Below the pieces are notes generated by a model. That model ran no database searches. It saw only the letters and a list, made by a program, of their open reading frames with translations, and was not told the origin of the DNA. A program made the translations under genes and the position numbers. A stretch of 64,000 nt of DNA from a virus (Duplodnaviria; Heunggongvirae; Uroviricota; Caudoviricetes): the IMG/VR virus record IMGVR_UViG_3300042363_000940; one strand, written 5' to 3'. Below are positions 22,603 through 54,324 of this stretch, piece after piece; position 1 is the stretch's first letter; each line of letters starts with the position of its first letter.

Positions 22603-22639
22603 GATGTGTTGTTTTATATATAAATATCATTTAAAATGA

Positions 22640-25188: not shown

Positions 25189-25201
25189 GAATATTCCAAA
25201 T
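25189..25201 (-). promoter_or_regulatory. conserved promoter-like element
   Basis: TTCGAATATTCCAAAT, 39 nt upstream of the trimmed start at 25150. Confidence 0.45.
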
Positions 25202-26788: not shown

Positions 26789-26836
26789 TTAACGATACTT
26801 TTTTCTTATATATAAATACAACCGAAATGGTTATTG

Positions 26837-36258: not shown

Positions 36259-36546
36259 TTACTCAACTTCGGGCGTTTCTTCCGTACTATTTAATATAAT
36301 AATTTCCTTATGTTCCTTATCAACTAACAACGCAGTTACTGGTTTATCGACCCTATAGAAATGTTCTCCATCGAGTATTCCTTCTTCTCCATTAACCATT
36401 GAGTATTCCATAAACTCCTCAGGGAGTTTGTTAATCCATTCTTTTAATTCTTGTAGTATCATAATTCTAATTTGATAAATGTTTCTTTTTGTGTTGTAAT
36501 AGATTACCATACCCACCAATTTGTTTGCTACAAATATCACAAACAA
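36259..36546 (-). CDS. hypothetical protein (95 aa)
   Basis: ORF; overlaps the 3' end of the homing endonuclease ORF, so one of the two may be shorter. Confidence 0.35.
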   Translation of the reverse strand: MFVIFVANKLVGMVIYYNTKRNIYQIRIMILQELKEWINKLPEEFMEYSMVNGEEGILDGEHFYRVDKPVTALLVDKEHKEIIILNSTEETPEVE

Positions 36547-37129
36547 ATTTTTCTAAAGTTTTACCTTTGTTCCATGTAGGTTTTCCCTTTTTGGTTTCAC
36601 TTATTTTTTTACTATGTTCTTTTGTTCTTGGTGGTTTTGGTTTCCTTAATTTTTCTCTATTCTCTTCTTTTTTCATTGGATTATTATCACCTGATAATGC
36701 AATACTCATTTTATATCTATACTCATCAGATTTATGAAATCCATGTGATATTCTTTTTTGTATTGTTTCTTCAGATTGCGTTACCCCAATTTGATACTCT
36801 CTTAATTTTTGTTTATGCTCTTCTGTTTTTGGGTATCTTAACTTTTCTCTAACTTCATCTGATGGATTGAATAACCCCTCACCGCCATCTGTCATATTTG
36901 TCAATGTATCTCTACCATATTTTTGAATTAAATATTTTTCAGTATCACATGCACCTTCCCATTCAATATCCGATTCAATAATTTCAACATCATATCCATA
37001 TTTAGCAACAACGTTTTTCCAATGTATGTTTCTATTTCTATAAGAATAAGCTCTTTCTTCATAAAGGCCAATCCCAACATAAAAAACTTCATTAGTATTT
37101 TTCTTTTTGTGTAAATAAACAACTGCCAT
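36467..37129 (-). CDS. GIY-YIG homing endonuclease (free-standing, Seg/I-TevI-like)
   Basis: VVYLHKKKNTNEVFYVGIG (GIY-YIG), NUMOD-like K/R-rich repeats, C-terminal CDICSKQIGGYGNLLQHKKKH zinc finger. Confidence 0.8.
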   Translation of the reverse strand: MAVVYLHKKKNTNEVFYVGIGLYEERAYSYRNRNIHWKNVVAKYGYDVEIIESDIEWEGACDTEKYLIQKYGRDTLTNMTDGGEGLFNPSDEVREKLRYPKTEEHKQKLREYQIGVTQSEETIQKRISHGFHKSDEYRYKMSIALSGDNNPMKKEENREKLRKPKPPRTKEHSKKISETKKGKPTWNKGKTLEKFVCDICSKQIGGYGNLLQHKKKHLSN

Positions 37130-37200: not shown

Positions 37201-38493
37201 TCAATTGGACAAGGGCGCCTTAATTGTTGAATGCGATTGGTAATTATCCGTTTTAAAAGTGATATCCACATCTAAAGTATTAATAACCTCATCTACGGTT
37301 AATAAATGCCAATTTTCATTACCTGAATTGATTTTTAATGTGGGTAATTTAAATGGTTCTCTTGTGTGATTTGGTATTTTGTAAGAATTATAATACTCAC
37401 TTAAACCACCACCGAATGGTACTTGTTCATCAACCGCTGTTTTATAAAAATCACCCATTGCGGTCTTTAACAATTCTGTTCTCTCTTCGTGAGTGTATTT
37501 TCTTCCAATCTGTTCTTTAGCCTGTTCAATATGATTTGAATACAAATGTACATCACCTAAATTACCAATCAACTCATCAGGTACCATATTAACAGTTTTA
37601 GCAATTATTTCCAATAACAATCCATAAGATGCAATGTTGAATGGTAAACCTAAGAATGTATCTACTGAACGTTGATTCCACATTAATGAGATTGCTCTTG
37701 TTGGGATATTATGATTGTTTAGAACTTCTAATGTCCTTTCTTCAGGAATTACTGTCCCATAATTACCACCTCTTCTAAACTCAGAAGGGTCTAAATCTCT
37801 TTTTGTAAATTCTAATACTCTATCATTCAAACTCAACTCTCTTGTATAAACTTGAAATCCATAATGACAAGGAGGTAAAGTCATTTTATCCAACTCCCCC
37901 ACATTCCAAGCACTAACCATTAATCGTCTTGAGTCTGGATTTGTTTTAAGGTCGTTGATTAGATTTTGGATTTGGTCTATTGGTGGGTATTTGAAATATG
38001 ATACCCCATCGAGATATTCATCCTCGGTTTCCCAACTTCTCCATTGTTTACCATATATTGGACCTAACTCACCCCATTTCTTAGCAAACTCATCATCGGT
38101 TTTGATTTTGTCAATAAATTCTTCTATTGTAAATGGTTCAGTTAATGTTCTATTTTTCTTAGAATTCTCTAATAATTTGGTTTTACCAACATATTCACCT
38201 TTATTATATCTTTTAATATAGGCTTGGTAAGCATCACCATTCCAAATGTGACAATTGTTATCAACTAAATATTTAATGTTTGTATCACCACGTAAGAACC
38301 ATAATAATTCAGTTACAATAGTTTTCCAAGCCATCTTCTTGGTTGTAAGTAAAGGAAACCCTTCACTCATTTTATGACGTATTTGTCTACCAAATACTGA
38401 AATGGTACCACCATTTCTTGTTTCTTTCTTAACTCCATTATCAAGAATGTCTTGTAGGAGTAATTGATATTGTTTATCTATGTTATTCATCAT
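37201..38493 (-). CDS. thyA: thymidylate synthase ThyA with three large insertions (430 aa)
   Basis: FPLLTTKKMAWKTIVTELLWFLRGDTN, LPPCHYGFQVY (catalytic Cys), QRSVDTFLGLPFNIASYGLL, DVHLYSNH; extra segments of about 50, 45 and 50 aa relative to E. coli ThyA. Confidence 0.9.
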   Translation of the reverse strand: MMNNIDKQYQLLLQDILDNGVKKETRNGGTISVFGRQIRHKMSEGFPLLTTKKMAWKTIVTELLWFLRGDTNIKYLVDNNCHIWNGDAYQAYIKRYNKGEYVGKTKLLENSKKNRTLTEPFTIEEFIDKIKTDDEFAKKWGELGPIYGKQWRSWETEDEYLDGVSYFKYPPIDQIQNLINDLKTNPDSRRLMVSAWNVGELDKMTLPPCHYGFQVYTRELSLNDRVLEFTKRDLDPSEFRRGGNYGTVIPEERTLEVLNNHNIPTRAISLMWNQRSVDTFLGLPFNIASYGLLLEIIAKTVNMVPDELIGNLGDVHLYSNHIEQAKEQIGRKYTHEERTELLKTAMGDFYKTAVDEQVPFGGGLSEYYNSYKIPNHTREPFKLPTLKINSGNENWHLLTVDEVINTLDVDITFKTDNYQSHSTIKAPLSN

Positions 38494-38856: not shown

Positions 38857-39987
38857 TTATTCTTCGTCTTTTTTATACTCTTCAAATAATTCATCGTTTG
38901 AAAGTGTTCCGTATTTTGTTGACAAGTCATCGGTTTTAATTTCAGCGTACATTACATGTAATGTATTTTTTAACTCATCTGCTAATGATAGTGATTTACA
39001 AATAACAGTTAAGATTCTGTAAGGGTCAGCGTTTGAACCGGGTCGTCTATCTTCAAGATAACCCCTCCACGTTTCTCCGACGGTTTTTGGAACCCTAATT
39101 GATGCACCTCTATCAGATACACCCCAACTGAATTTATCAATTGATTGTGTTTCAAATTTACCCGTTAATCTTAAATGATTATCGGAACCATAATTTTCAA
39201 TATGAATTTTTGTCCTACTTTCAAATGTTTTAAAGATTGCGTTGAAGTATTCTTCCCCACCTGTCTCTCTCATTTTTTGGTTTGAGAAATTGGCATGTAA
39301 ACCTGAACCATTCCATTCACCTGTCGTAATTGGTTTAGGGTGTAACTCAATTGCCACCGAATATCTTTCAGAAATTTTATTTAAGAAGTAACGAGACATC
39401 CATAAGTCATCAGCACCTTTAAGTTTACCTTTAGCAAAGATTTGATATTCCCATTGACCCAATGCAACTTCTGCGTTTGTTCCTTCAAGATTGATACCAT
39501 AGTTTAAACACATATCTAAATGTTCATCACTAATAAGTCTACCAACAACATGACCACCAACACCGCAATAGTATTTTCCTTGTGGGTCAATCATCCCACC
39601 ATTTTCAAAACCCAATACAGGTTGGTTATGTCCTGAACGAATAAAATATTCTTGTTCAAATCCAACCCAAAAATCGGTATCTTCTTCCCCAACTTTTGCT
39701 CGGTAATTTGATGGGTGAATCTCATTGTTTCCGTCAAGTACTTCACACAACACATAAACTGTTGGGTAATCATCTTTACTGTTATTGTTTTTATAAAACC
39801 TAACAGGTTTTAAGTAACAATCGGAGAAGTTACCCTCCGCCTGCATTGTTGAACTTCCATCGAATCCCCAGTTAGAGATGTCATCAATGGTTAACTCGCC
39901 GTTATAGTCAACGACTTTAATTTTACTTCTAAGATTTGGTTCGGGTGAATATCCATCCAACCAAACGTACTCAAATTTAATTTTCAT
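38857..39987 (-). CDS. glnII: glutamine synthetase, type II (eukaryote-like)
   Basis: EYVWLDGYSPEPNLRSKIKVV, NWGFDGSSTMQAEG, GKYYCGVGGHVVGR, GTNAEVALGQWEYQI, NFSNQKMRE, ASIRVPKTVGE, YLEDRRPGSNADPY all match GSII blocks. Confidence 0.85.
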   Translation of the reverse strand: MKIKFEYVWLDGYSPEPNLRSKIKVVDYNGELTIDDISNWGFDGSSTMQAEGNFSDCYLKPVRFYKNNNSKDDYPTVYVLCEVLDGNNEIHPSNYRAKVGEEDTDFWVGFEQEYFIRSGHNQPVLGFENGGMIDPQGKYYCGVGGHVVGRLISDEHLDMCLNYGINLEGTNAEVALGQWEYQIFAKGKLKGADDLWMSRYFLNKISERYSVAIELHPKPITTGEWNGSGLHANFSNQKMRETGGEEYFNAIFKTFESRTKIHIENYGSDNHLRLTGKFETQSIDKFSWGVSDRGASIRVPKTVGETWRGYLEDRRPGSNADPYRILTVICKSLSLADELKNTLHVMYAEIKTDDLSTKYGTLSNDELFEEYKKDEE

Positions 39988-41730: not shown

Positions 41731-41768
41731 ATAACGGATAGAGTAAAAACTGTCCGTTATTTTTTGAC
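41731..41768 (+). terminator. rho-independent terminator
   Basis: AACGGATAG...CTGTCCGTT hairpin followed by ATTTTTT. Confidence 0.45.
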
Positions 41769-41798
41769 CATATAATATATATAAATTTATATACTTAT

Positions 41799-41996
41799 AT
41801 GAAAGCACAGACAAAACTTACGAGTGTTCACATTTTAGATGATGTGTACAAAAAATTCAAAATCAACACGATAGATGGTTCAATTAACCTACAGAAGTTA
41901 GTTAATAGGGCTCTTGATTTATACAATACAAGAGAGGATTTTAGAGACCAGATAAACAACCATAACGGTTTGGCAACAACGGGGTCTAAATTCTAA
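41799..41996 (+). CDS. hypothetical protein (65 aa)
   Basis: First ORF of the plus-strand operon; preceded by an AT-rich ATATATATAAATTTATATAC element. Confidence 0.45.
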   Translation: MKAQTKLTSVHILDDVYKKFKINTIDGSINLQKLVNRALDLYNTREDFRDQINNHNGLATTGSKF

Positions 41997-41998: not shown

Positions 41999-43357
41999 AT
42001 GAAGAAAAAGATTCTATTATTATCTGATGATTTAAGAATGACATCGGGTGTTGCTACTATGTCAAAAGAATTGGTAATGGGTACTATTCACAAGTACGAT
42101 TGGGTACAGTTGGGTAGTGCAATCAACCATCCTGAGGCAGGTAAAATTGTAGATATAAATGCGGACATTAGGGAGAAGACAAGAGTACTTGATGCAAACC
42201 TTAAAATCATTCCAAGTAATGGATATGGTAATATTTTTACATTGAGGTCTCTTATTGAGTCTGAGAAACCTGACGCAATATTACACTTCACCGACCCACA
42301 TTACTGGCAATGGTTGTACGAGGCGGAACATGAGATTAGACAACAAATTCCAATTCTATATTACCACGTGTGGGATAACCTACCTGACCCAACCTATAAT
42401 AGAAACAATTATGAAAGTTGTGATTGGATTGGTTGTATCTCCAAACAAACATATGGTTTAGTCCATAGAGTGGGTAAAATGGATAACGAACCAACCTTCA
42501 AACCTTTGGAGGATTGGCAAATCAGTTATGTTCCTCACGGTATTAATTCAGATGTGTTCAAACCAACAGATAGTGTTGCTGATGATTTAAAGAAATACAT
42601 TTACGAAGATAAAGAATATGATTTTATTCTATTCTATAACAATCGTAACATCAAAAGAAAACAACCGGGTGATGTGATATTATCATATAAATTATTCTGT
42701 GATTCTTTACCTAAAGAACAATCCGATAAATGTTTATTGTTAATGCACACCACACCAATCGATGAGAATGGTACCGACCTACCGGCGGTGGCTAAAAGTG
42801 TTTGTCCCGACTATAATATTAAGTTTGTTAACTTAAAATTGGAACAGAATAAATTGAATGAGTTGTATAATATTGTTGACTGTACAATTAACATTGCGAA
42901 CAACGAAGGTTTTGGTTTGGGTACCGCCGAAAGTATAATGGCTGGCACACCAATCATTGTTAATGTCACAGGTGGATTACAAGACCAATGTGGTTTTGAT
43001 TACACCGCAGACAATTACATAACATTCGGTTCACTCCACAATAGAAAGAAACACGGTTCAACTTTACATGGTGAATGGGTTGTACCCGTTTGGCCATCCG
43101 TTAACAATCTAAATGGTTCGGTCCCAACTCCTTTCATTTATGAAGACAGAGTAAACAATAATGATGTTGCCGGTGCAATTTCTGAAGTTTATGGTTGGGG
43201 TAAAGAAGGAAGAAAAGAACGAGGATTAAAAGGTAGAGAATGGGCAATCGAAAACCTATCAAGTAAAGTGATGTGTGATTCATTAATTGATGGAATTGAA
43301 ACAACTTTCAAAAACTATAAACCTAAAAAGAAATTTGAATTATATCGTATAGTATGA
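41999..43357 (+). CDS. GT-B glycosyltransferase (GT1/GT4-like)
   Basis: NNEGFGLGTAESIMAGTPIIV matches the E(x7)E sugar-donor binding motif. Confidence 0.75.
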   Translation: MKKKILLLSDDLRMTSGVATMSKELVMGTIHKYDWVQLGSAINHPEAGKIVDINADIREKTRVLDANLKIIPSNGYGNIFTLRSLIESEKPDAILHFTDPHYWQWLYEAEHEIRQQIPILYYHVWDNLPDPTYNRNNYESCDWIGCISKQTYGLVHRVGKMDNEPTFKPLEDWQISYVPHGINSDVFKPTDSVADDLKKYIYEDKEYDFILFYNNRNIKRKQPGDVILSYKLFCDSLPKEQSDKCLLLMHTTPIDENGTDLPAVAKSVCPDYNIKFVNLKLEQNKLNELYNIVDCTINIANNEGFGLGTAESIMAGTPIIVNVTGGLQDQCGFDYTADNYITFGSLHNRKKHGSTLHGEWVVPVWPSVNNLNGSVPTPFIYEDRVNNNDVAGAISEVYGWGKEGRKERGLKGREWAIENLSSKVMCDSLIDGIETTFKNYKPKKKFELYRIV

Positions 43358-44601
43358 GTAAACCTTTTTTATTATTTAGAGGACCCGTTGAAACATTAAG
43401 TGGGTATGGAGCACACTCGAGAGATTTATTGAGGTCTCTTCGTGACATGGACTTATTTGAAATAAGGGTGGATTCGTGTCATTGGGGTTCAACACCAAAA
43501 ACGGCATTACAAGAGGATACCGAATATAATAAGTGGATACTTGCGCATATCGTTAAAGTGATACCCGCAACTCCCGATGTTTATGTTCAGGTTACAGTAC
43601 CAAATGAATTCCAAAAGATTGGTAGGTTCAGTATCGGTATAACTGCCGGTATTGAAACAACAATGGCATCAAAGGAATGGATTGATGGTTGTAACAGAAT
43701 GGATTTAATCATCACAACTTCAACCTTCTCCAAGGAAGTACTACTTCAAACCGTTTACAATGAAACTGATAACCTAACCGGTAAACTAATTAAACAACAT
43801 AAAATTGAGAAACCTGTTGAGGTTCTTTTTGAGGGTGTTGACACTGAAATTTATAATGATAAATTTTCAGGGTTAGATGTTGGAATTAACGAAGATTTTT
43901 CTTATCTTTTTGTTGGTCACTGGTTAAAAGGTAATTTAGGTCAGGATAGAAAAGATGTTGGTATGTTAATTAAGTGTTTCTCTGAGGCATTTAAGGATTC
44001 GGAAGAACAACCCGCATTAATTCTTAAAACATCTTCAGCATCTTTTTCGATAAAAGAAAGAGAAAACTTTAAGAAGAAAATTTCTGATTTGGTTAAGGGA
44101 ATTGAAAACCCACCGCCAATCTATCTTTTATTCGGTGAGTTAACAGACAAGGAAATGAATGAGTTATACAATCACCCAAAAGTGAAGGCAATGGTAACCT
44201 TAACAAAAGGCGAAGGATTCGGTAGACCTCTACTTGAGTTCTCAATGACAGGTAAACCTATTCTTGCATCTAATTGGTCGGGACATAAAGACTTCTTACC
44301 AATGGATAAGGCAGTAATGTTAGGTGGTTCATTGACTGATGTTCATGAGAGTGTTGTTGATTCATTTATCATCAAGGGGTCAAAATGGTTTACACCAAAC
44401 TATGGTGAAGTTGTTGAGATTATGAGAATGGTTAAAAATGAATATGACACGTTCTACGGTAACTCTCAAGTTTTGATGGAAGAGAATAGAGAAAAATATT
44501 CGATGTCAAAAATGACCGAGAAGTTTGAATCAATCATAACACCATATGTGGTTAAACCTAAAGAAGTTAAATTAAAAATACCTCAGTTAACAAAACTATA
44601 A
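43354..44601 (+). CDS. GT-B glycosyltransferase (GT1/GT4-like)
   Basis: TKGEGFGRPLLEFSMTGKPILAS motif; start overlaps the previous gene (ATGA). Confidence 0.7.
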   Translation: MSKPFLLFRGPVETLSGYGAHSRDLLRSLRDMDLFEIRVDSCHWGSTPKTALQEDTEYNKWILAHIVKVIPATPDVYVQVTVPNEFQKIGRFSIGITAGIETTMASKEWIDGCNRMDLIITTSTFSKEVLLQTVYNETDNLTGKLIKQHKIEKPVEVLFEGVDTEIYNDKFSGLDVGINEDFSYLFVGHWLKGNLGQDRKDVGMLIKCFSEAFKDSEEQPALILKTSSASFSIKERENFKKKISDLVKGIENPPPIYLLFGELTDKEMNELYNHPKVKAMVTLTKGEGFGRPLLEFSMTGKPILASNWSGHKDFLPMDKAVMLGGSLTDVHESVVDSFIIKGSKWFTPNYGEVVEIMRMVKNEYDTFYGNSQVLMEENREKYSMSKMTEKFESIITPYVVKPKEVKLKIPQLTKL

Positions 44602-44882
44602 TGGGATTACTTGACAATTTTAAATTAGGTAGAGAAAATGAAGACAATTCATTTTTATTTACGAACCATAACCTTCAATTATTTACATTACAACCGACAG
44701 TTACATTTAATCAAACCGAATGGATGTTTCAATTTGATGAAGGTGAACCGACGGTTTTCGCAACACAACAAGAAGAATCCAATTTAACGATAACACTCAA
44801 CAACACCAATCACGCATCGATAGAATTTACGGGACCCAATAATCAAAAATTTAAAATATTCGCAAGAGAAAGACAACAATGA
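44601..44882 (+). CDS. hypothetical protein (93 aa)
   Basis: Translationally coupled ORF. Confidence 0.4.
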   Translation: MGLLDNFKLGRENEDNSFLFTNHNLQLFTLQPTVTFNQTEWMFQFDEGEPTVFATQQEESNLTITLNNTNHASIEFTGPNNQKFKIFARERQQ

Positions 44883-45505
44883 AAATAAGTTATGCAATTA
44901 CCGTTTGTGATGAGTTACAAGAAATCAAAAGACTTGTACCGTTTCTTTTAGAACATAAAAGACCTGAAGATGAAATCATAGTTTTATATGACCAAAAAAA
45001 TGGGTCGGATGAGGTAATTGATTTCTTATTACCATTTAATAGATTCCCACATGTTCAAACATGGAGAGGTATGGTTTTCGTAAATGATTTTTCTATTTGG
45101 AAAAACAAATTAAACGATTACTGTGGTGGTGATTACATTTTACAATTGGATGCGGATGAAATGATTACCGAGGAACTAATTAAAATGTTACCGGCAATAC
45201 TTGAATCAAATCCTGAAGTTGATTTGTTTGTACTTCCTCGAATAAACACGGTGGATGGTATAACCGAAGAACACATTAACAAGTGGGGATGGAAACAAGA
45301 TGAACAGGGTAGAATTAACTTCCCTGATTGGCAGGGTAGATTATACCGTAAAGGTTTAAACTGGTATGGTAAAGTTCATGAAAAAATTATAGGGGCAAAG
45401 AAATATTCGATTATGCCTGAAGATGAGGGATTTTGTATCCTTCATCCTAAAACAATCGAGAGACAGGAAAGACAAAATAATTTTTACAGTAAAATTCAAA
45501 AGTAA
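44879..45505 (+). CDS. putative GT-A glycosyltransferase (GT2-like)
   Basis: ISYAITVCDE N-terminal pattern and DXD motif QLDADEMI. Confidence 0.5.
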   Translation: MKISYAITVCDELQEIKRLVPFLLEHKRPEDEIIVLYDQKNGSDEVIDFLLPFNRFPHVQTWRGMVFVNDFSIWKNKLNDYCGGDYILQLDADEMITEELIKMLPAILESNPEVDLFVLPRINTVDGITEEHINKWGWKQDEQGRINFPDWQGRLYRKGLNWYGKVHEKIIGAKKYSIMPEDEGFCILHPKTIERQERQNNFYSKIQK

Positions 45506-46263
45506 TGAAGTTAATTTTAGCAACTGGGTCCGATATAAATTATATGACCAAGATGAGACCATACTTTAAATCAATTGAGAAAAACTCAAACTTCGATAAG
45601 AATGTTTTGGTTTTTGTTGGTGATGGGGAAGGTTTATCATTACCATTTAAAACTATCGATATCGCAACATTATCGATTTCAGACGTACAGGCATTGAATA
45701 ATAATAAGTGTGTTCAACACGGGGATTTCTTAAACTCCAATCACTTCAATTCAATAACCCAAGATGATGACGTTATCTTCTATACTGACGGTGACATCAT
45801 CCTTCAACGTAACATGACTGACGAAGAGTTAGAACAATTCAGAAACTTCAAAGATGGTGACGTTTATGTTGGTTATAATGCATCACCAACTGACACATTA
45901 ATGATTGAATCGGGTAGATTAGGTCAAACGGGTGTTAAGGTTGACGGTGTGAGTGACAAACCGTGGGATAAGATTAAAGTCTATAACACCGGTGTTCTCG
46001 CAATGAATAAAAGAACTTGGGCTAAACTACTAAGTGACTATGTTGAATTGTATCCGTCAGTTGAACCAATGTTTGCGCATTACGCAAAACAACAATGGTT
46101 GATTTCATTTTTGATTGGCACAAGAGAAGATTACAATATAATCGAAATGCCGTACCATATCCATAATCATTTACATTTCCCAAGTCCTGAGGGTACAATC
46201 CAAGATAAAAACGGTGATGTATTTTTTAACAATAAAAAAGTATTATTCAAACACAAATGGTAG
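45505..46263 (+). CDS. putative nucleotide-diphospho-sugar transferase
   Basis: DXD-like FYTDGDIILQ; weak. Confidence 0.4.
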   Translation: MKLILATGSDINYMTKMRPYFKSIEKNSNFDKNVLVFVGDGEGLSLPFKTIDIATLSISDVQALNNNKCVQHGDFLNSNHFNSITQDDDVIFYTDGDIILQRNMTDEELEQFRNFKDGDVYVGYNASPTDTLMIESGRLGQTGVKVDGVSDKPWDKIKVYNTGVLAMNKRTWAKLLSDYVELYPSVEPMFAHYAKQQWLISFLIGTREDYNIIEMPYHIHNHLHFPSPEGTIQDKNGDVFFNNKKVLFKHKW

Positions 46264-46913
46264 AAATTTTTAAAAGGATATCTGAAATTGATATCAAAGA
46301 AATCGATTTAAATGTTTTAGAAACAATTCTCCCCACATTTGGTATGAATGGTGAGAATTCGAGAGAGTTACCTTCAGAATTGTCTGAACACTTTAATGAA
46401 GGTATTCGTTTTTGGCAGTACCCAAATCAATTTGCTCCGTATCTTAAACAAATATCAAAATATAGAATTAAATCGTATCTTGAAATTGGTTGTAGGTGGG
46501 GTGGTACGTTTATTATAACAAAGGAAATATTAACCAAAATAAATGGTGAAGTTAATGGATTCGCGTGTGACTTTATGCCACAATCAAGGATGCTTGACGA
46601 ATACCAAAAATATGGTAATTTTAACTACTTACAAACTCATAGTCAAAAATTAAAAAGAGAATCAATAAATCAAGATATTGATTTAATTTTAATTGATGGT
46701 GACCACAGTTATGAAGGGTTAAAAAGAGATTTTGAAATCTGTAAACAATATAACCCCAAATACGTATCTTTTCATGATATATGTAGTGACGCATGTCCTG
46801 GCGTTGTTAAGTTTTGGAATGAAATTAAGGAACAATATAAACACTATGAATTTATGAGTCAATATGATAGTGTTGACGGTAATTTTTTAGGTATTGGTTT
46901 AATAGAGATTTAA
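46257..46913 (+). CDS. class I SAM-dependent methyltransferase (Methyltransf_24 / CmcI-like)
   Basis: LEIGCRWGGTFII and LILIDGDHSYEGLKRDFEI motifs. Confidence 0.6.
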   Translation: MVEIFKRISEIDIKEIDLNVLETILPTFGMNGENSRELPSELSEHFNEGIRFWQYPNQFAPYLKQISKYRIKSYLEIGCRWGGTFIITKEILTKINGEVNGFACDFMPQSRMLDEYQKYGNFNYLQTHSQKLKRESINQDIDLILIDGDHSYEGLKRDFEICKQYNPKYVSFHDICSDACPGVVKFWNEIKEQYKHYEFMSQYDSVDGNFLGIGLIEI

Positions 46914-46914
46914 T

Positions 46915-48012
46915 ATGGAGTACGATTATCTAATAGTTGGTGCCGGTTTCTTCGGTTCCATATGTGCCCACGAATTAACTAAGTCAGGTAAAAAAGTTTT
47001 AGTTATTGATTCAAGAGAACACATCGGTGGCAATTGTTACACCGAGAATAAAGATGGTATCAATGTTCAAGTATACGGTGCACACATCTTCCACACATCA
47101 AACAAAGAAGTGTGGGATTGGATTAACCAATTCGCTGAGTTTAACAACTATAGACACCATGTGATTGCCAACTACAAAGAAGAATTATATTCACTTCCTT
47201 TTAGTATGTGGACATTCAATAAACTGTGGGGAGTTAAGACACCTCAACAGGCGAAAGATATGATTGCAGAACAATCAAATGATATTGAAGAACCGAGCAA
47301 CTTAGAAGAACAGGCAATCAAACTTGTAGGTAAGGATGTTTATGAAAAACTCATTAAGGGTTATACTCATAAACAATGGATGAAAGACCCCAAGGAATTA
47401 CCAAAGGAAATCATTAAGAGGTTACCAGTTCGTTTTACCTATGACAACAATTATTTCTTTGACAAATATCAAGGTATCCCAATTGGTGGTTACACTCAGA
47501 TTTTTGAAAAGTTATTAGAGGGAGTTGAGGTTAGATTGGGTGTGGATTATTTTAAAGGTAGTTTACCTAAACATAACAAAGTAATATTCACAGGACCAAT
47601 CGATAAGTTCTTCGGTTACAAGTACGGTAAGTTAGAATACAAAACAGTTAGTTTCGAACACCAGTATTATAGTTCACCAAACCTTCAGGGTGTCCCTGTA
47701 ATGAACTATACTGATGTGGATGTACCATTCACTCGTATCATTGAACATAAACACTTTGAGGGTTTAGAAACGAATGGCTCGTGGATTACATATGAATACC
47801 CACAAGAGTATGTGGCAGATAAAACTGACCCATATTATCCTGTGAACGATAAAGAGAACAATGAAATGTTTTCAAAATATAAAGAAGAGGCGGAGAAAGT
47901 TAAGGATTGTGTATTGTTTGGTGGAAGACTTGGTGAATACAAATACTATGACATGCATCAGGTTGTCGAATCAGCACTAAACTTTATTAAAAAGGAAATC
48001 GATGGAAATTAG
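46915..48012 (+). CDS. glf: UDP-galactopyranose mutase
   Basis: YDYLIVGAGFFGSICAHEL...KKVLVIDSREHIGGNCYTE...VYGAHIFHTSNKEVWDWINQF aligns with Glf along its length. Confidence 0.9.
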   Translation: MEYDYLIVGAGFFGSICAHELTKSGKKVLVIDSREHIGGNCYTENKDGINVQVYGAHIFHTSNKEVWDWINQFAEFNNYRHHVIANYKEELYSLPFSMWTFNKLWGVKTPQQAKDMIAEQSNDIEEPSNLEEQAIKLVGKDVYEKLIKGYTHKQWMKDPKELPKEIIKRLPVRFTYDNNYFFDKYQGIPIGGYTQIFEKLLEGVEVRLGVDYFKGSLPKHNKVIFTGPIDKFFGYKYGKLEYKTVSFEHQYYSSPNLQGVPVMNYTDVDVPFTRIIEHKHFEGLETNGSWITYEYPQEYVADKTDPYYPVNDKENNEMFSKYKEEAEKVKDCVLFGGRLGEYKYYDMHQVVESALNFIKKEIDGN

Positions 48013-49105
48013 TTTTGTACTTGCGGTATTCAATAAATTAGACCTCACCAAGGATTGTTATAAAAGACTTCGTGAAATCTATCCCGATGCACCATTAGTA
48101 ATCAGTAGTGGGGGTTCAACAGATGGTACCAAAGAATGGTTAGAGTCTTTAGATGACGATAATCTTTCATTTGTTCACGATGATGATAGGTTAACCTTCT
48201 CAGAAACGTATAATGCTGCAATTAAGATTGTAGATACGGAGAAACTTGTCCTTATTCACAACGATATGGTCATTGGGAGACACTTTCTCGAGAATTTGAA
48301 TAGATTACTCACACCAGACACTTTGATGTGTTATACGACCTTAGAACCACCCATTTTTGCTGGTCACCAAAGACCCGGTAAAGTGATAATGGACTTAGGT
48401 AGTTCGTTCCACGATTTTAAATGGGAAGAATTTGATTCATATGTTGAAGAGAATAAGAACAACTGTCAGATATATGATGGTGGTGTGTTCTTTATGAGTG
48501 GTTATAAGAAACTATTCGAGGATGTGGGTTACTTTGATGGATTTAGTTTTGTACCAGCGTTTGCTGAGGATGATGACTTCTTAATCAGAACCAAACTGAA
48601 GGGATATAAATTAAAAACCACATCATGCGCAATCACATATCACTTTGTTTCACAGACTTCTCGTTTCAGTGATGATTACAAGAAAGATAGATTTAAGTAT
48701 GAGGTTAACTCAAATAGAAACTTTGTTCGTAAATGGGGCATATCAATTCCATCATTCAATGAATTAAGATATTGGGAGGATAATCTATTTGTTTATAAGA
48801 CTTTCACCATGGGTTTAACCACTCGCAGTCGAGCAAGGTTATTTGAGATAGAACCGTTCTTCGATAAAATCGATTTAGGGACAATTCCCGAGGATTACAT
48901 CGAGAATGAACAGAAGAATACTCGTTATGATTTAAGGTCGAAATTTGTCCTTACAGATATCGTAGATGTGATGGTTTATGAAGTTCAACCAATGACTGAT
49001 GATGACATCTACACGTTACAGAAATTGAGGTTATCAATTCCATATTATGAACCGGGTGAATACCAAGTAGGTTCATTAAAGATAGAAATAAGAAAGGGGG
49101 TATAA
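48002..49105 (+). CDS. GT2-like glycosyltransferase (candidate galactofuranosyltransferase)
   Basis: ISFVLAVFNKLDLTKDCY N-terminal GT2 pattern; directly coupled to glf. Confidence 0.55.
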   Translation: MEISFVLAVFNKLDLTKDCYKRLREIYPDAPLVISSGGSTDGTKEWLESLDDDNLSFVHDDDRLTFSETYNAAIKIVDTEKLVLIHNDMVIGRHFLENLNRLLTPDTLMCYTTLEPPIFAGHQRPGKVIMDLGSSFHDFKWEEFDSYVEENKNNCQIYDGGVFFMSGYKKLFEDVGYFDGFSFVPAFAEDDDFLIRTKLKGYKLKTTSCAITYHFVSQTSRFSDDYKKDRFKYEVNSNRNFVRKWGISIPSFNELRYWEDNLFVYKTFTMGLTTRSRARLFEIEPFFDKIDLGTIPEDYIENEQKNTRYDLRSKFVLTDIVDVMVYEVQPMTDDDIYTLQKLRLSIPYYEPGEYQVGSLKIEIRKGV

Positions 49106-49124
49106 ACCCCCTTTTTTTATTCGT
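49096..49124. terminator. bidirectional rho-independent terminator between convergent genes
   Basis: AAGGGGG-TATAAA-CCCCCTT with a T-run on the plus side and an A-run on the minus side. Confidence 0.55.
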
Positions 49125-49590
49125 TTGTTTCAGTTGGTTTTGATACCAATTGGAATAAGATTGAATAGTTGTCGGTAGTATCACCGGCGTTCTCCAAATC
49201 CTCTACTGTCAACGGAGTGTACTCAACTTCTTTCTCCTCGTTTAACAACTCACCGTATTCTTTTTGGAAATCGATGTATTTTGGATTTAACTCACGAGAA
49301 ATAACTGCATCGTTCTCATCTTTCTGTTCAATGAACATACCGATTTGAATTCCACCTTTACCATCGTCTTCACCATGTTTTTGGATGATATCATCACGAA
49401 GTGTTTCAACTGACTTGCGTTCTGCAGACAATCTCTCACCAAGTTCTGTCAACCAATATTTGGTTTTAAGTGCTAATTTATGTTTTCTAAAACCGATGAA
49501 AATTTCTTTTCCTGTTTGTGGATTAACCAAACCGTTAATCTCACTCTCCAATTGTAGGATTTCTCCAAGTTTAAGCGTTCTTTTTGCCAT
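49117..49590 (-). CDS. hypothetical protein (157 aa)
   Basis: ORF. Confidence 0.5.
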   Translation of the reverse strand: MAKRTLKLGEILQLESEINGLVNPQTGKEIFIGFRKHKLALKTKYWLTELGERLSAERKSVETLRDDIIQKHGEDDGKGGIQIGMFIEQKDENDAVISRELNPKYIDFQKEYGELLNEEKEVEYTPLTVEDLENAGDTTDNYSILFQLVSKPTETNE

Positions 49591-49645
49591 AATTGTTTAA
49601 TTTGATTTTTATTAATTATACATTTAATTTTTTAAATTGTCAAGT

Positions 49646-50365
49646 CTATTTCCCCAATAATTGAACTTTTGTTACCCCCGTCATCTTATCTTTTAATAAG
49701 GTTGTTAGATTCTTATCCTTTTCAATATTGATTGACGATAATTTTGAGGCAATGGTAATTGAGATACCTTCACCAGATGCAATAATCTTACCTCCATTGA
49801 TTAGACCACAATATTCTTTTGCGACTTGTAATTTTTCATAGATGTTATAAAAATGTTCTTGATTGAAACCATTTTTATTAATGGCAATAAAGTATTCCCA
49901 CAACATCTCAAGTTCATTATAACTCGGATACAATACATCTATATAATTTTTATAGTGAATCCACTCGTGTTGAGTCAAATCCATTTCATCCACATATTCT
50001 TTTTTGATTGGGTGATTAACCAAGGTATCAATATATGATATACCCTCTTTAAATGAATATGATTTTAAATCATCTAAGAATGTGTAATCGGAAATCTCGG
50101 TATCGGCATCAATCAGTATTGAGATGTCGTGATTTTTAAGAATGTATTTTGGAAGTATCATTTTATCATGATACGATTTTTGGGACCTTTCATATGGAAT
50201 TACATGAAGGTATAAAGAAGTTAAAAAGTCTTTAAAGTATTCGGGGTTATCAGTTAGAACGTAACAATGATAACCCCCATTAAGAATTTGTTTTACCTTA
50301 TCGGATGTGATTTTATAATAATAATCTTCACCGAAACAAAAAATTCCAAATCCTATATTGTTCAT
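49646..50365 (-). CDS. hypothetical protein, possible DXD glycosyltransferase
   Basis: ILIDADTE motif; weak. Confidence 0.45.
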   Translation of the reverse strand: MNNIGFGIFCFGEDYYYKITSDKVKQILNGGYHCYVLTDNPEYFKDFLTSLYLHVIPYERSQKSYHDKMILPKYILKNHDISILIDADTEISDYTFLDDLKSYSFKEGISYIDTLVNHPIKKEYVDEMDLTQHEWIHYKNYIDVLYPSYNELEMLWEYFIAINKNGFNQEHFYNIYEKLQVAKEYCGLINGGKIIASGEGISITIASKLSSINIEKDKNLTTLLKDKMTGVTKVQLLGK

Positions 50366-50394
50366 AGGATATAATTTAAGGAAAAAATTTTAAA

Positions 50395-50547
50395 TTACAA
50401 AGTGTTAGATAAGAAATTTGCGTAGTTTGTTGCGGTCTCTTCCTCACCAAATGGTTCGGTTGTCTCCAACACACCATTACGTTTAAATTCAACATACCAT
50501 ACGTTACCATTTTGGTAAACTCTTACATCAGTTATAGTGTTCATATT
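50395..50547 (-). CDS. small hypothetical protein (49 aa), paralog of the next small ORF
   Basis: MNTITDVRVYQNGNVWYVEFKRNGVLETTEPFGEEETATNYANFLSNTL; shares the pattern IY..N..WYV....G....P..E..A.N(F/Y) with 50578-50691. Confidence 0.35.
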   Translation of the reverse strand, partial: NMNTITDVRVYQNGNVWYVEFKRNGVLETTEPFGEEETATNYANFLSNTL

Positions 50548-50577
50548 ATGAATTTAATTTTAAACTAAAATTAATTG

Positions 50578-50691
50578 CATGTTGTTCTTCCATATATGGA
50601 TTACTTATGATAGTTTCACCGTCCTGTATGTATTTTACGTACCAACAGGTGTTTTCTAAATAAATTTCTATGTTATCGATTTCTGGCATAA
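50578..50691 (-). CDS. small hypothetical protein (about 47 aa)
   Basis: MPEIDNIEIYLENTCWYVKYIQDGETIISNPYMEEQHAINFSLKLNS. Confidence 0.35.
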
Positions 50692-50693
50692 TA

Positions 50694-51068
50694 TTATGAA
50701 TTTATATCAAATACAGTTAATGGTCTTTGAACCACAATCCATTGTTGATTAGTTTCATCCCAAATTGCGGCCTGAGTGTTTGTAATCGATGGTCTCTCAA
50801 TTGGTGAATCCCAACATTTTAATTCAGTATTAATAACCCAAGAATTGTAAGGTTTTGGAGGTAAGAATACATCTAAAACCTCATTGTATGTGAAACCAAC
50901 ACCAGCGAACATTCCTCTAATGGTTCCATTATAAGATGTTTGAATCCATCTTCCACCTAAACCTAAGTCAATCGATAGGTATTCCTCACCTCTGTGTTCT
51001 TCCTCATTAGGAACAACTAAAACTTTGGTTACAACGTTATTTAAATCTATTTCTGCAAAATGTGCCAT
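50694..51068 (-). CDS. hypothetical protein (124 aa), structural-block neighbour
   Basis: ORF. Confidence 0.5.
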   Translation of the reverse strand: MAHFAEIDLNNVVTKVLVVPNEEEHRGEEYLSIDLGLGGRWIQTSYNGTIRGMFAGVGFTYNEVLDVFLPPKPYNSWVINTELKCWDSPIERPSITNTQAAIWDETNQQWIVVQRPLTVFDINS

Positions 51069-51072
51069 ATTT

Positions 51073-52740
51073 TTATTTGTATTTATATCTAATTATTACG
51101 ATACCACTTCCACCATTTCCTCCTTGGTTATTTCCATTGTAATGAGAACCCCCGCCACCGCCACCACCGGTGTTGGTACCTCCATTTCCTCCCGGAACGT
51201 TTGCCCATGAACAACACGCACCGTATGCTCCGGGTACTCCCCACATGATTGAATCTTTTCCCCCTTCACCTTGTCCAAGAGCACCTCCACCCCCGCCACC
51301 ACGACCTCCATATCCACCCGCATCATTTGAGTAAGCGGAACCTCCTCCGCCACCGCCCCAATAATATGGTCGGCCTAATATACCTGAAAATTTACCTGAA
51401 CCACCGTTTGGTCTTGAAGGTGAGTTGGTACCAACTGCACCAGCACCTCCACCTCCACCTGAATAGTATTGTCCACCACCTTGACCACCATTAAATCCTT
51501 GACCCGATATTCCTGTACCTCCACTTCTTATATTTCCATCACTATATCCACTTGGTGCCCCTCCCGAACCACCATTACCTGGTGTACCGTAGTTAGGGGT
51601 ATAACCATAATATGAACTTGCTCCAAATCCACCACCTGTGGATGTTAACCCTAATGCAGATGAACTATCACCTTGGGATGCACCTATTTGAAATTGATGA
51701 AATTGTGGTTGTCCCGGTGTATTTGCTGCAGGTGCTCCCGCACCACCAGCCCCAACTGTTATGGTATAAGTGGTTTGATTTAAAACGGTTCGTCCCGATA
51801 AGACACCTCCGCCACCTCCTCCGCCGCCCATGTCCATACCTCCACCGCCACCACCGGCAACGATAAGATATTCCACTTCCAATAATGAAGCGTCGGCAGT
51901 TGATGTGATTGCGAATGTACCACTACTATTAAATCTGTGAACTCTCCATTCACCCACTTCGGTGATAACACCACCAGTGGCAATTACTCTATGATGTTTA
52001 AATGAAGAACCTGAAGTGTTTATTGTTAAGGATTCTAATTTGTTTTGTCTGTTATTATCTAATAAGTTTTGTATTGTTGGTTCTGAACCATCACATAAAT
52101 CAACTCGTGGGTCAAAAAATTGTAATCGTGTTGTATTGTCACCGCAATAGTAAAGATAAGTTCTATGATTTAATCCATATGTACTTGGTCCTGATTTACA
52201 ATCACTACCAATATTACAACCATTAATACTTCCAACTTTTCCTCCTGTTGTTGTCCAAAATCCAGTATCGGGGTGTCCACCCAATCCTTGTGGATAGTCA
52301 AATGGAAAACAATGACCAACAACTAAGTACCATTGGTCTTGTGTTAAACCTCCCGAACCACCACAATGCCAATATGGGTTACACTCCTCGTTTCCGTCGG
52401 ATAGTCTTATAACACATTGACCAATACCATTTGTACCTAAATAAAATGTTCCACCAGCACTAACGGATGTTCTTTTAACCCAAACAGAATGTCTATATAA
52501 TTTTGTGTTGTCGATATAAAACCAATCGGTGTTCCATCCACCGTCGGGGTTTCCATTACCTGATGGTCTTGTTTCCCAAACAACGGCGGAATTACCCCAC
52601 GGGTCGGTACCAACTACTCTTGCATTCTCATCGCCATTTTCATTGGCAGAAAAATTACCAAGGGGTGTGGCAAAACTACTTGAACCCGTTGTCCAATCGT
52701 TTCCCGTTATTTTACTCGATGTTTTATAATATACTGGCAT
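51073..52740 (-). CDS. glycine-rich structural protein (555 aa)
   Basis: Globular N-terminal about 250 aa followed by about 300 aa of poly-Gly low complexity (GGGGGGMDMGGGGGGGG..., GGSGG repeats). Confidence 0.7.
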   Translation of the reverse strand: MPVYYKTSSKITGNDWTTGSSSFATPLGNFSANENGDENARVVGTDPWGNSAVVWETRPSGNGNPDGGWNTDWFYIDNTKLYRHSVWVKRTSVSAGGTFYLGTNGIGQCVIRLSDGNEECNPYWHCGGSGGLTQDQWYLVVGHCFPFDYPQGLGGHPDTGFWTTTGGKVGSINGCNIGSDCKSGPSTYGLNHRTYLYYCGDNTTRLQFFDPRVDLCDGSEPTIQNLLDNNRQNKLESLTINTSGSSFKHHRVIATGGVITEVGEWRVHRFNSSGTFAITSTADASLLEVEYLIVAGGGGGGMDMGGGGGGGGVLSGRTVLNQTTYTITVGAGGAGAPAANTPGQPQFHQFQIGASQGDSSSALGLTSTGGGFGASSYYGYTPNYGTPGNGGSGGAPSGYSDGNIRSGGTGISGQGFNGGQGGGQYYSGGGGGAGAVGTNSPSRPNGGSGKFSGILGRPYYWGGGGGGSAYSNDAGGYGGRGGGGGGALGQGEGGKDSIMWGVPGAYGACCSWANVPGGNGGTNTGGGGGGGSHYNGNNQGGNGGSGIVIIRYKYK

Positions 52741-52747
52741 GTCTTAT

Positions 52748-53536
52748 TTATATTTTAAAACGAACTCTTCCGTTATTAAAGTTTTGTGTTATTTCAGATT
52801 CTGTTAGTGCTCGATTATATATATGAACCATTGGAATATATGCATCCATAAAGTGATTACTATTTACACAACCAACAAAAAATTCATTGGTTGGGGTTCC
52901 CCCAACTCCAACTGCAGCTTTAGAGTCAACTAAAACACCATTTACATATAATCTAACATCACCACCTGAGTCAAGTACAAATCCGTTATAATACCAAATT
53001 CCAGTTTCAAAAGTATAATTATATAAACCACTGTTATTACCCGCACCAGCATAAAAATATCCCTGACCTCCATTTTGAATACCAAGATACGTGTAACCTG
53101 CAGCGTCTTGTGTTCCGGTAAGTGAATAACCACCCGTACCGTCTAAATTTTTATATTTAATCCAAATAAAATAACTTCGAGCACCAGATGGTCTAATTTG
53201 ACTTCGACATTTAGAACTCAATGCCGATTGAAAGTTAGCACTACCATTACCTTGGTCATATATGATTTGTGCTCCCGATTCAATAGTTGCATCGTAACCG
53301 TAACCACTCATATCTCTCCATATTGTGTTACAATTGACACATCCGGGATTTGATGAATAATATTGACACCCATAACCACAATCATAATAATTGGACGTAT
53401 TTTTAAAAGAATAATCATTGGCCGCGTCTAACCATAAGGTAATTCCTCTAGTTACTAATTCGGGTGGATGTATCGTTGTACCCGTTGGGCTAAAATCATC
53501 CGCACCTAATACGTTACCTCCAATTGCTATTGACAT
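52748..53536 (-). CDS. LamG/concanavalin-A-like domain protein (putative distal fibre or receptor-binding protein)
   Basis: RGITLWLDAANDYSFKNTS resembles the LamG_3 (GLVLHLDA...) pattern. Confidence 0.6.
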   Translation of the reverse strand: MSIAIGGNVLGADDFSPTGTTIHPPELVTRGITLWLDAANDYSFKNTSNYYDCGYGCQYYSSNPGCVNCNTIWRDMSGYGYDATIESGAQIIYDQGNGSANFQSALSSKCRSQIRPSGARSYFIWIKYKNLDGTGGYSLTGTQDAAGYTYLGIQNGGQGYFYAGAGNNSGLYNYTFETGIWYYNGFVLDSGGDVRLYVNGVLVDSKAAVGVGGTPTNEFFVGCVNSNHFMDAYIPMVHIYNRALTESEITQNFNNGRVRFKI

Positions 53537-53552
53537 ATTATATTAATTATAG

Positions 53553-54323
53553 TTAAAAATAGTTATTAACTGTAGCGTTATAGTTCTCTAAAATTTCATA
53601 TGGATTTAAAATTCTATTGTAGAGACTAATCATTGAAATGTCGCCCCAATATTGACTTGCATTGTTAACATCATTTTGTGAACCATTGTTGTATGCACCT
53701 ATGGAACAAAATCCGTGTTTAAATCTTGAATTTATACTACTAATACTACCACGTTTAAAACTCGCACTATCGTTATATCCAAATTCATAATAAGGTGCCT
53801 CCGTATCAAAAAATCTCCAAACCATGAAAACCCACGATGATGGGTAACCCGGTAAACTCTGTTGACTAAATCCTGAATTGTTAAAACCTGTTCCATTTGT
53901 GTTATCGTACATTCCAATGTCCCATGCACCCGATTGTATAATGACATGGTGGTCTTGTCCTGAACTTAAACCCCTAAGTAATGTTCTCCATTCCGCAGTA
54001 CTGTTTTTAACTCTAGTCCAAAGACAGATTGTCACATTACCTGACACAATTAAATCCGAACTCTGTTTTTTTGCACAACCATATGAACCATTAAAGTCCA
54101 TATATTTAATTGCGGTTGCTGAATTAAACGCCGATGCATTTATTTCAAAATTATTTCCGAGAGGACTTAAATCAAACCACGTTGTTCCACTACCAGGATA
54201 TGAATCTTTATCGGTTGCATCCAAATGTAGTATCAATCCATCTCTATTATATTTTTGTTTAAAAACTCCTGTTGATGTAATATCGGTACTAGTGATTTCA
54301 TTATTTTTTAGATATAACGCCAT
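53553..54323 (-). CDS. LamG/concanavalin-A-like domain protein
   Basis: DGLILHLDATDKDSYPGSGTTWFDLSPLGNNFEI is the signature of phage LamG-like jellyroll domains. Confidence 0.7.
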   Translation of the reverse strand: MALYLKNNEITSTDITSTGVFKQKYNRDGLILHLDATDKDSYPGSGTTWFDLSPLGNNFEINASAFNSATAIKYMDFNGSYGCAKKQSSDLIVSGNVTICLWTRVKNSTAEWRTLLRGLSSGQDHHVIIQSGAWDIGMYDNTNGTGFNNSGFSQQSLPGYPSSWVFMVWRFFDTEAPYYEFGYNDSASFKRGSISSINSRFKHGFCSIGAYNNGSQNDVNNASQYWGDISMISLYNRILNPYEILENYNATVNNYF

Positions 54324-54324
54324 A

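Follow-up and report, generated by a model that had tools for sequence, protein, structure and literature searches.

The system described here is a glycan-assembly operon on a 64,000-nucleotide stretch of tailed-phage DNA (Caudoviricetes; IMG/VR record IMGVR_UViG_3300042363_000940), hereafter the window, which represents 64 kb of this phage's genome. Reading of the open reading frames (ORFs) of the window places nine translationally coupled plus-strand ORFs between positions 41799 and 49105, and their content is confirmed as five glycosyltransferases (GTs), one methyltransferase, one UDP-galactopyranose mutase and two small ORFs. Comparison of 82 loci, onto all of which the window's proteins were mapped, shows that four of the transferases form a frame conserved throughout a very large group of phages that live in water and probably infect Bacteroidota, and that the genes between the third and fourth of them, termed the cassette, are exchanged.

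The operon and its boundaries

The features of the operon, in order, are as follows.

41731..41765, plus strand: hairpin followed by a T-run, ATAACGGA...TCCGTTAT TTTTTT, read from the sequence; it insulates the operon from an upstream 57-aa ORF
41778..41794, plus strand: A+T-rich promoter-like boxes, TATATAA then ATTTATATAC, within which AATTTATA is a 7/8 match to the octamer TATTTATA
41799..41996, plus strand: o65, a 65-aa leader ORF, present in 66/82 loci at ~77% identity and in Flavobacterium phage immuto at 38%
41999..43357, plus strand: GTB1, a GT4-type retaining GT-B glycosyltransferase, frame gene 1
43354..44601, plus strand: GTB2, a second GT4-like GT-B glycosyltransferase, frame gene 2 (phrog_2170, E 4e-22; Glycos_transf_1, E 3e-5)
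44601..44882, plus strand: o93, a small ORF within the frame, weakly kept (31-52% identity, 67/82 loci)
44879..45505, plus strand: GT2a, a GT-A (GT2) glycosyltransferase with a DAD motif, frame gene 3 (PF00535, 30.3 bits against a cut-off of 23.3)
45505..46263, plus strand: o252, a 252-aa cassette gene product that carries no annotation and is a GT8-like GT-A glycosyltransferase by structure
46257..46913, plus strand: MT24, a class I S-adenosylmethionine-dependent methyltransferase (Methyltransf_24), cassette gene (PF13578, 30.8 bits against a cut-off of 26.3)
46915..48012, plus strand: UDP-galactopyranose mutase (Glf), cassette gene (PF03275, E 1.3e-73; 1I8T, E 4e-139)
48002..49105, plus strand: GT2b, frame gene 4 and last in the operon (PF00535, 36.7 bits, over the Pfam cut-off)
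49087..49121, called on both strands: strong bidirectional intrinsic terminator AAAGGGGGTATAAACCCCCTTTTTTT, a 12-14 bp G+C-rich hairpin with a T-run

An earlier note, made from the letters of the window alone, had proposed nine tightly coupled plus-strand genes here, and this holds: successive ORFs overlap by 4, 1, 4, 1, 7 and 11 nt, and the remaining junctions are gaps of 1-2 nt. The operon is the sole long rightward block of the window, the remainder of which reads leftward, and the sign of the GC skew flips across it. On the left, the hairpin recurs at the same position in ~50 related loci, its stem letters varying while self-complementarity and the following T-run are kept. On the right, the terminator separates the operon from a convergent gene (49117-49590).

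Both GTB1 and GTB2 have the two-Rossmann GT-B fold together with an EX7E motif in the C-terminal domain, which in GTB2 reads EGFGRPLLE; GTB1 also matches, weakly, the Pfam family 'GT4 in conflict systems'. GTB2 is 64-75% identical across 80 IMG/VR loci, 44% identical in immuto and 41% in 'Microcystis' phage Mel-JY01, these two being the only cultured phages that carry it. GT2a occurs in 79/82 loci and is 51% identical in immuto. GT2b consists of a GT2 domain (~residues 1-230) and a ~140-aa C-terminal domain without assigned function; it is found in 60/82 loci at 60-83% identity, with a 26%-identical counterpart in immuto, and a PDB sequence search with it gave nothing useful. The two small ORFs match no family, o65 having no hit in Pfam, PHROG, NCBIfam or PDB and o93 none in Pfam, PHROGs or NCBIfam. 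With o252, which combines a GT-A fold with a DxD metal/nucleotide-sugar motif, the operon encodes two GT4-type GT-B enzymes and three GT-A enzymes, in agreement with the earlier count of two and at least two, respectively. The DxD motif is intact in GT2a and o252, as is EX7E in both GT-B enzymes.

Within the cassette, all measures agree on the mutase. It scores 398 bits against the TIGR00031 equivalog (cut-off 303.75) with residues 3-361 covered, so that its earlier identification as a clear UDP-galactopyranose mutase stands over the full length. The flavin adenine dinucleotide (FAD)-binding residues, whose loss would have spoken against the assignment, are intact: the GxGxxG motif is present as IVGAGFFGS, aligned to IVGSGLFGA of Escherichia coli Glf (1I8T), and the blocks RLPVRFTYDNNYF, TRIIEHKHF, PYYPVND and YKYYDMHQV differ from their E. 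coli counterparts by 0-2 residues. We take these blocks to hold the catalytic and substrate-binding Arg and Tyr residues of the family. Phage-encoded mutases as such have already been annotated in several phages. MT24 is probably a sugar O-methyltransferase; of its former description as a CmcI-like methyltransferase, the Methyltransf_24 assignment lies above its cut-off and the CmcI likeness is weak (E 0.03). It sits immediately 3' of o252 throughout, the sole exception being a 30%-identity tblastn match in one locus (L003) that lacks o252. The latter is a candidate transferase for the cassette sugar.

A constant frame and a replaceable cassette

The same frame is found on >60 viral contigs as well as in immuto, with the fixed order o65, GTB1, GTB2, o93, GT2a, variable block, GT2b and convergent gene, and each of the four frame transferases is present in 60-82 of the 82 loci. 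The variable block holds 0-9 co-directional, tightly packed genes and spans <=7.4 kb. It draws on 72 cassette protein families, which yield 31 distinct compositions among 60 loci. Of the cassette genes of the window, the mutase occurs in 11/82 loci (71-82% identity), o252 in 9/82 and MT24 in 5/82; the mutase is accompanied by o252 in 8/10 of its occurrences. A Pfam scan of 71 cassette-family representatives matched 46 families, and the 25 most frequent were inspected. Methyltransf_24 is the commonest (9/71 representatives scanned), and the others include nucleoside diphosphate (NDP)-sugar epimerases/dehydratases, DegT aminotransferases, hexapeptide acyltransferases, short-chain dehydrogenases, acetyltransferases, a set of 3-ketoacyl-acyl carrier protein synthase III (KAS III) and acyl-carrier proteins, a cytidylyltransferase and extra GT2 enzymes.

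That the cassette site is a recombination hot spot inside a conserved frame is most evident from two pairs of backbones. In one, the two flanks show nucleotide identities of 94.2% and 98.7%, and the cassettes are wholly different (Jaccard 0); in the other, with flanks 91.5% and 97.9% identical, the cassette has likewise been wholly replaced. The cassette would set the variable part of the glycan.

As an observation on particular cassettes, a KAS III-like enzyme and an adenylating enzyme occur in those of four loci (L006, at 13127-17680, L014, L021 and L063), together with a 74-aa acyl-carrier-like protein and with short-chain dehydrogenases, and an aminotransferase adjoins them. This set suggests N-acylated amino sugars in the glycans of the phages concerned.

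Promoters and timing of expression

The genome of immuto, assembled from four sequence stretches for box counts, is the best guide to when the operon may be expressed. Of the 30 copies of the octamer TATTTATA on its coding strand, 24 precede an ORF start by <=70 nt, where 2.9 would be expected. The genes so preceded are mostly ones for morphogenesis and lysis and include those for terminase, portal, tail sheath, tail completion, baseplate hub, tape measure and tail spike, and the head gene of the chitinase/holin (lysis) cassette. An exact copy also stands 30 nt before gp88, the leader of the homologous GT operon, whose promoter is thus of the morphogenesis-gene type. No copy was found upstream of the 7-deazaguanine DNA-modification genes of immuto. 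In 56/63 loci of the wider lineage, the 50 nt before the o65 homologue contain a TATATAA or TATTTATA box.

In the window itself, three further genes are preceded by exact GATATTTATATATAA boxes, and two promoter classes can be recognized.

7983-7997 (plus strand), 22612-22626 (minus strand) and 26804-26818 (minus strand): class (G/T)ATATTTATATATAA with core TATTTATA, also present in immuto
1737-25200, minus strand: motif TTTGGAATATTC(G/T)AAA, then TA..TTTG ~20 nt on, in 13 copies (<=1 mismatch; 1.4 expected), for example at 1737-1748, 5069-5080, 7445-7456, 15541-15552, 19012-19023 and 25189-25200

The first class, which resembles T4's TATAAATA, probably serves these phages as their late promoter. 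The second, in the form TTTGGAATATTC ... TAnnTTTG, is found ahead of most leftward genes in the first 26 kb of the window and fits the Bacteroidota promoter type with TTTG at -33 and TAnnTTTG at -7, thereby indicating a Bacteroidota host; a palindrome within it (GGAATATTCC-like) could be an operator. A scan of the window for sigma-70 promoters was uninformative (48 sites against 50.4 expected). A Lake Baikal metatranscriptome lists one viral glf transcript, which could not be tied to this lineage and was set aside.

Mel-JY01 likewise has a Bacteroidota-type box, TATATTTG, upstream of its GT cluster (L002, 8920-8960). This TAnnTTTG box renders its host assignment doubtful, and the recorded cyanobacterial host may be wrong, the true host being, for instance, a Bacteroidota bacterium in a xenic Microcystis culture. 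The argument that a frame shared across host phyla (Flavobacterium, Microcystis) implies a phage-encoded acceptor was dropped accordingly.

Glycosylation of the virion as the best reading

The best reading of the operon, although one to be held tentatively, is that it is an entirely soluble glycan-assembly pathway for the late, cytoplasmic glycosylation of one or more structural proteins of the phage. Four lines of evidence favour it together: predicted late-type expression, solubility, a constant frame around a varying cassette and adjacency to fibre genes. Judging from the enzyme families, the four frame enzymes would assemble a common glycan core from ordinary host sugar nucleotides, the mutase would turn host UDP-galactopyranose into UDP-galactofuranose, o252 or one of the GT2 enzymes would transfer the galactofuranose (Galf), and the Methyltransf_24 enzyme would O-methylate a sugar. 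The genomic context suggests that the acceptor would be structural, modified late in the cytoplasm, either ahead of assembly or in its course. The particles would thereby acquire a glycan coat specific to the strain, and this coat would be diversified through cassette exchange under selection by whatever recognizes the particle surface.

With regard to solubility, no operon protein contains a hydrophobic 19-mer. Among the cassette-family representatives only 2/72 do, a Rossmann N-terminus and a 77-aa ORF, and none resembles a transporter or a membrane-bound enzyme. Neither an initiating phosphoglycosyl transferase nor a flippase, polymerase, ligase or oligosaccharyltransferase is among the 25 Pfam families found most often in the 71 representatives scanned. 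Within the same scope, the operon and the cassette representatives show none of the hallmarks of a surface-polysaccharide or gtrABC locus (initiating transferase, Wzx/Wzy or ABC export, Gtr membrane proteins). Structural searches with GTB1 and o252 bring up, among other neighbours, enzymes of viruses that glycosylate their capsids or fibrils, namely chlorovirus B736L and A64R and mimivirus R699.

With regard to location, candidate acceptors, which are also candidate receptor-binding proteins, are the fibre, Gly_rich_2 and Laminin_G_3 proteins encoded to the right of the operon.

51073-52740, minus strand: Gly_rich_2 (glycine-rich) protein
52748-53536, minus strand: Laminin_G_3 (lectin-fold) protein
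54325-63996, minus strand: fibre gene of >3,200 codons, 4,057 residues as called on a related contig (L085, 8650-12337)

The interval 52748-54323 encodes two proteins homologous to annotated 'structural proteins' of immuto. The operon had been described as lying next to a fibre and structural block, and this is true of its right side, where the minus-strand block 49117-63996 is the only such block in the window. It does not apply to the left, where 40 kb are occupied by accessory and nucleotide-metabolism genes, not structural ones (an N6/N4 DNA methylase, a DUF192 protein, a haloacid dehalogenase (HAD)-type phosphatase, phosphoesterases, a glucosaminidase and an SPFH protein).

Several points weigh against virion glycosylation. 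The operon does not adjoin fibre genes in immuto or Mel-JY01. The late-promoter argument holds exactly for immuto alone, whose frame proteins are only 26-51% identical to those of the window; the operon start of the window has a TATATAA box and the 7/8 match, not the exact octamer. In immuto the box also stands upstream of several genes of unknown function, and the structural genes of the window's own clade offer no intergenic upstream region in which boxes could be compared. Solubility is weak evidence, because peripheral GT4, GT2 and GT8 enzymes that act on lipopolysaccharide (LPS) or other lipid-linked host glycans look alike in also having no membrane segments. The top-scoring structural neighbours, PimB', PimA, WaaG and LgtC, act on lipids or LPS, and for both GTB1 and o252 the neighbours in fold give no indication whether the acceptor is a protein, a lipid or a small molecule. 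Finally, the literature searched reports no glycoprotein for any phage of this lineage.

One further structural match may be recorded. In BFVD, the best viral match of the GTB1 model is UPI00000381B0 (23% identity), and UPI00000381B2, two identifiers away, is matched as well; the two look like adjacent GTs of a single, old viral genome.

Alternative acceptors and origins

Remodelling of the host envelope, which the earlier note had set beside virion glycosylation, is now the less well supported of the two, given the soluble pathway and the morphogenesis promoter box of immuto; somewhat unlikely as it is, it continues to be a serious rival. Here, soluble transferases at the inner face of the membrane would alter lipid-linked precursors of LPS core, O-antigen or capsule, and host export would display the altered glycan, which could block superinfection or keep progeny from adsorbing to debris. 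The best structural matches of GTB1 and o252 speak for it, since they include PimA/PimB', WaaG, WaaB, PglH-like enzymes and LgtC, all with lipid-linked or LPS acceptors. Cassette content resembles that of O-antigen and capsule loci, cassette swapping is seen in bacterial surface-glycan loci too, and similar clusters of large cyanophages are usually interpreted in this way (PMC12801897). Against these, neither an initiating transferase nor a flippase, polymerase, ligase or membrane protein of the Gtr type was found among the 72 cassette-family representatives. Furthermore, the four frame transferases stay the same from one cassette, and presumably one host strain, to the next; with a morphogenesis-type box, as in immuto, little of the lytic cycle is left in which the surface could turn over; and no lysogeny genes were seen in the window.

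Another soluble acceptor, whether a free oligosaccharide, a glycosylated small molecule or glycolipid, or a host protein modified for takeover or anti-defence, is improbable. The GT4 neighbours BshA, MshA, sucrose-phosphate synthase and GlgM do act on small molecules, GTB1 has its weak match to 'GT4 in conflict systems', and the conserved small ORFs o65 and o93 have no assigned role. However, five transferases with interchangeable sugar-tailoring cassettes suit a displayed and recognized glycan better, and the window shows no specific small-molecule pathway.

Glycosylation of phage DNA, which the earlier note did not raise, calls for closer attention owing to precedent, even though it is highly improbable that the transferases decorate a hydroxylated base (5-hydroxymethylcytosine, 5-hydroxycytosine (5hoC) or 5-hydroxymethyluracil) with a variable glycan that evades restriction. 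In Pootjesviridae (RL38J1), a DNA-hypermodification cluster combines a phage UDP-galactopyranose mutase, which supplies UDP-Galf, with several GTs that glycosylate 5hoC in DNA, the acceptor base being made by homologues of the thymidylate synthase ThyA with D169N plus N177D and L143E (PMC13326640). A GT-B gene near a ThyA homologue has served to flag DNA-modification pathways (bioRxiv 10.1101/2023.12.21.572611), and the present operon has such a homologue 3.5 kb away; <=10 kb separate the two in 51/82 loci. A DNA methyltransferase adjoins the operon as well, and glycans on DNA are also diversified. The relevant synthase and its neighbour are the following.

37201-38493, minus strand: long-form ThyA, 430 aa, with extra segments at ~residues 224-268 and 334-405 relative to solved bacterial enzymes
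36467-37129, minus strand: NUMOD3-motif (homing-endonuclease-like) gene, directly downstream of ThyA

The immuto ThyA has the same long form (424 aa, 59% identical). The active site speaks against this reading. The window's ThyA reads LPPCH ... QRSVD ... PFN, that is, L143, D169 and N177, the signature of a dTMP synthase, and the same three residues occur in 48/48 ThyA homologues of the loci and in immuto, without N177D, L143D/E or D169N. The complete immuto genome encodes a single ThyA homologue, and its DNA, analysed by liquid chromatography with ultraviolet and mass-spectrometric detection (LC-UV-MS), contains only dA, dC, dT and 7-formamidomethyl-7-deazaguanine (fdPreQ1), none of them glycosylated (PMC10516641). 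The adjoining methylase is of the N6/N4 type, not C5, and is found in 3/82 loci only; no Tet/JBP dioxygenase was found in the 64-kb window; and among the structural neighbours of GTB1 the T4 alpha-GT ranks 43 and the DNA GT of phage HY126 ranks 50. No ThyA variant that would make the acceptor base was seen in the window, the 48 loci or immuto, and on the 64 kb of this phage's own genome that could be analysed, DNA glycosylation is unlikely.

That the operon is a recently captured host island, passively carried with no role in infection, is scarcely credible and is contradicted by the sequence: the mutase is indeed >=65% identical to enterobacterial Glf, unusually high for a phage gene, but the closest cellular mutase, among one genome each for 185,579 species, is only 67% identical (a freshwater Cytophagaceae) while phage homologues are nearer at 71-82%, the identical mutase protein occurs on >=20 contigs from several samples, operon gene GC (0.30-0.36) and GC at third codon positions match the window (GC 0.349), and the reading frames are intact and coupled behind a conserved promoter region. 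The host-island outcome that the earlier note had named as fatal to its proposal is therefore not what was found.

Other genes of the window

Beyond the operon, the earlier note had listed three more putative GTs. That at 5085-5822 is a clear GT2, that at 11262-12143 is a weak match, and that at 49646-50365 is unsupported and was rejected, with no hidden Markov model match and an hhalign probability of 0.3 against the o252 family. The first two belong to a second, looser set of possibly glycan-related genes.

5085-5822, minus strand: clear GT2, preceded at 16 nt by a TATATAA box
9317-10189, minus strand: prolyl-4-hydroxylase-type 2-oxoglutarate (2OG)-Fe(II) oxygenase
11262-12143, minus strand: weak GT47/GT1-like protein
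12183-13448, minus strand: class I/II aminotransferase

Hydroxylated residues serve as glycan acceptors in collagen and Skp1 glycosylation, and by analogy a protein hydroxylase beside transferases could, speculatively, make hydroxylated acceptor residues here. Two further minus-strand genes lie nearer the operon.

35221-35760, minus strand: 2H-phosphoesterase-like protein, sub-threshold for Acb1, which acts against the CBASS defence (E 1e-5, 25.7 bits against a cut-off of 27); a possible anti-defence nuclease
38857-39987, minus strand: glutamine synthetase homologue (Gln-synt_N + Gln-synt_C)

To the right, a perfect 12/12 sigma-70 consensus (TTGACA, 17 nt, TATAAT) occurs at 49615-49643 on the minus strand, upstream of the conserved convergent gene 49117-49590. 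It is odd beside the Bacteroidota-type promoters elsewhere in the genome.

Relation to known glycosylation systems

The proposal that neither virion glycosylation nor host-glycan remodelling had been described for such a gene combination was too strong, in view of the core GTs of moraphages (PMC12619734) and the multi-GT clusters of cyanophages (PMC12801897). What does appear to be new is the frame-plus-cassette layout, the replacement of cassettes between near-identical backbones, the morphogenesis-type promoter and the evidence that sets this family apart from DNA-glycosylation systems.

The phages of this group are probably related to the moraphages, large aquatic phages with predicted Bacteroidota hosts and four core GT orthogroups whose role was left open (PMC12619734). 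Glutamine synthetase is an auxiliary gene of nine of them (PMC12619734). The window's group shares four conserved GTs, a glutamine synthetase homologue, contigs of 200-350 kb, freshwater origin and Bacteroidota-type promoters with that description, and the frame enzymes are probably the four core orthogroups, the two lineages being matched by traits and not by sequence. The moraphage paper, in contrast, describes no operon, variable cassette, mutase module or promoter.

In mechanism, the closest parallel to the reading favoured here is offered by the mycobacteriophages, tailed lytic or temperate phages that use their own soluble GTs to place glycans on capsid and tail-tube subunits (Freeman et al. 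2023, summarised in PMC12619734). Their operons differ in having few genes and actinobacterial hosts, and that summary reports no hypervariable cassette frame or Galf module for them. Giant viruses, with the capsid glycans of chloroviruses and the fibril clusters of mimiviruses (PMC9614988), are alike in that their glycosylation is virus-encoded, cytoplasmic and host-independent, with tailoring, methylation and clade-specific clusters. Their hosts, however, are eukaryotic and identity to GTB1 and o252 is only 12-19%, so that the likeness is one of fold and logic, not orthology.

The DNA-modification clusters of RB69/DLP3, which make arabinosyl-5hoC, and of Pootjesviridae RL38J1 (PMC13326640) share the multiplicity of GTs, family-wide synteny and, in RL38J1, a phage mutase. 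They need a ThyA-derived 5hoC synthase (D169N/N177D), whereas the present ThyA homologues are canonical and the cultured relative has unglycosylated DNA. The 'cell wall synthesis and modification' clusters of cyanomyoviruses (P-SSM2, S-SCSM1, S-SCSM2R; PMC12801897) also combine many GTs with NDP-sugar epimerases in large aquatic phages, but they belong to another lineage, use other GT families and are not reported to have the frame-plus-cassette layout.

Bacterial O-antigen and capsule loci place conserved flanks round a recombining block of sugar-nucleotide and transferase genes, and they also encode an initiating phosphoglycosyl transferase and an export system, either Wzx/Wzy or ABC. The present locus has the same enzyme families and the same exchange of a central block between conserved flanks. 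It differs in that no export or initiating transferase was found in it, and in lying on a lytic-type phage.

Implications

At least 7,975 clusters of GTB1 at 90% identity occur in public metagenomes, on contigs that reach ~350 kb, and the system is thus ecologically widespread. For the annotation of phage genomes, pipelines that take a GT-B gene close to a thymidylate synthase homologue as a sign of DNA hypermodification would place this very large family in the wrong class. The question of the acceptor is directly testable, because the Flavobacterium phage immuto, which carries the frame, is in culture.

With regard to the biology of the lineage, it is conceivable, if rather doubtful, that the virions of this lineage, among the most abundant of large freshwater and brackish phages, carry a protein-linked glycan in which a core built by the frame is capped by a 'glyco-serotype' exchanged with the cassette at a dedicated recombination hot spot, the Galf/O-methyl form of the window being one of at least 31 types. 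If true, it would be to viruses what O-antigen variation is to bacteria. A strain-variable glycan on the particle would imply that something in the environment discriminates particle surfaces, the candidates being host receptors or lectins, grazers, enzymes and adsorption to organic matter. Should the glycan indeed reside on the particle, self-glycosylation by virus-encoded enzymes, as in mycobacteriophages and giant viruses, would extend to aquatic phages.

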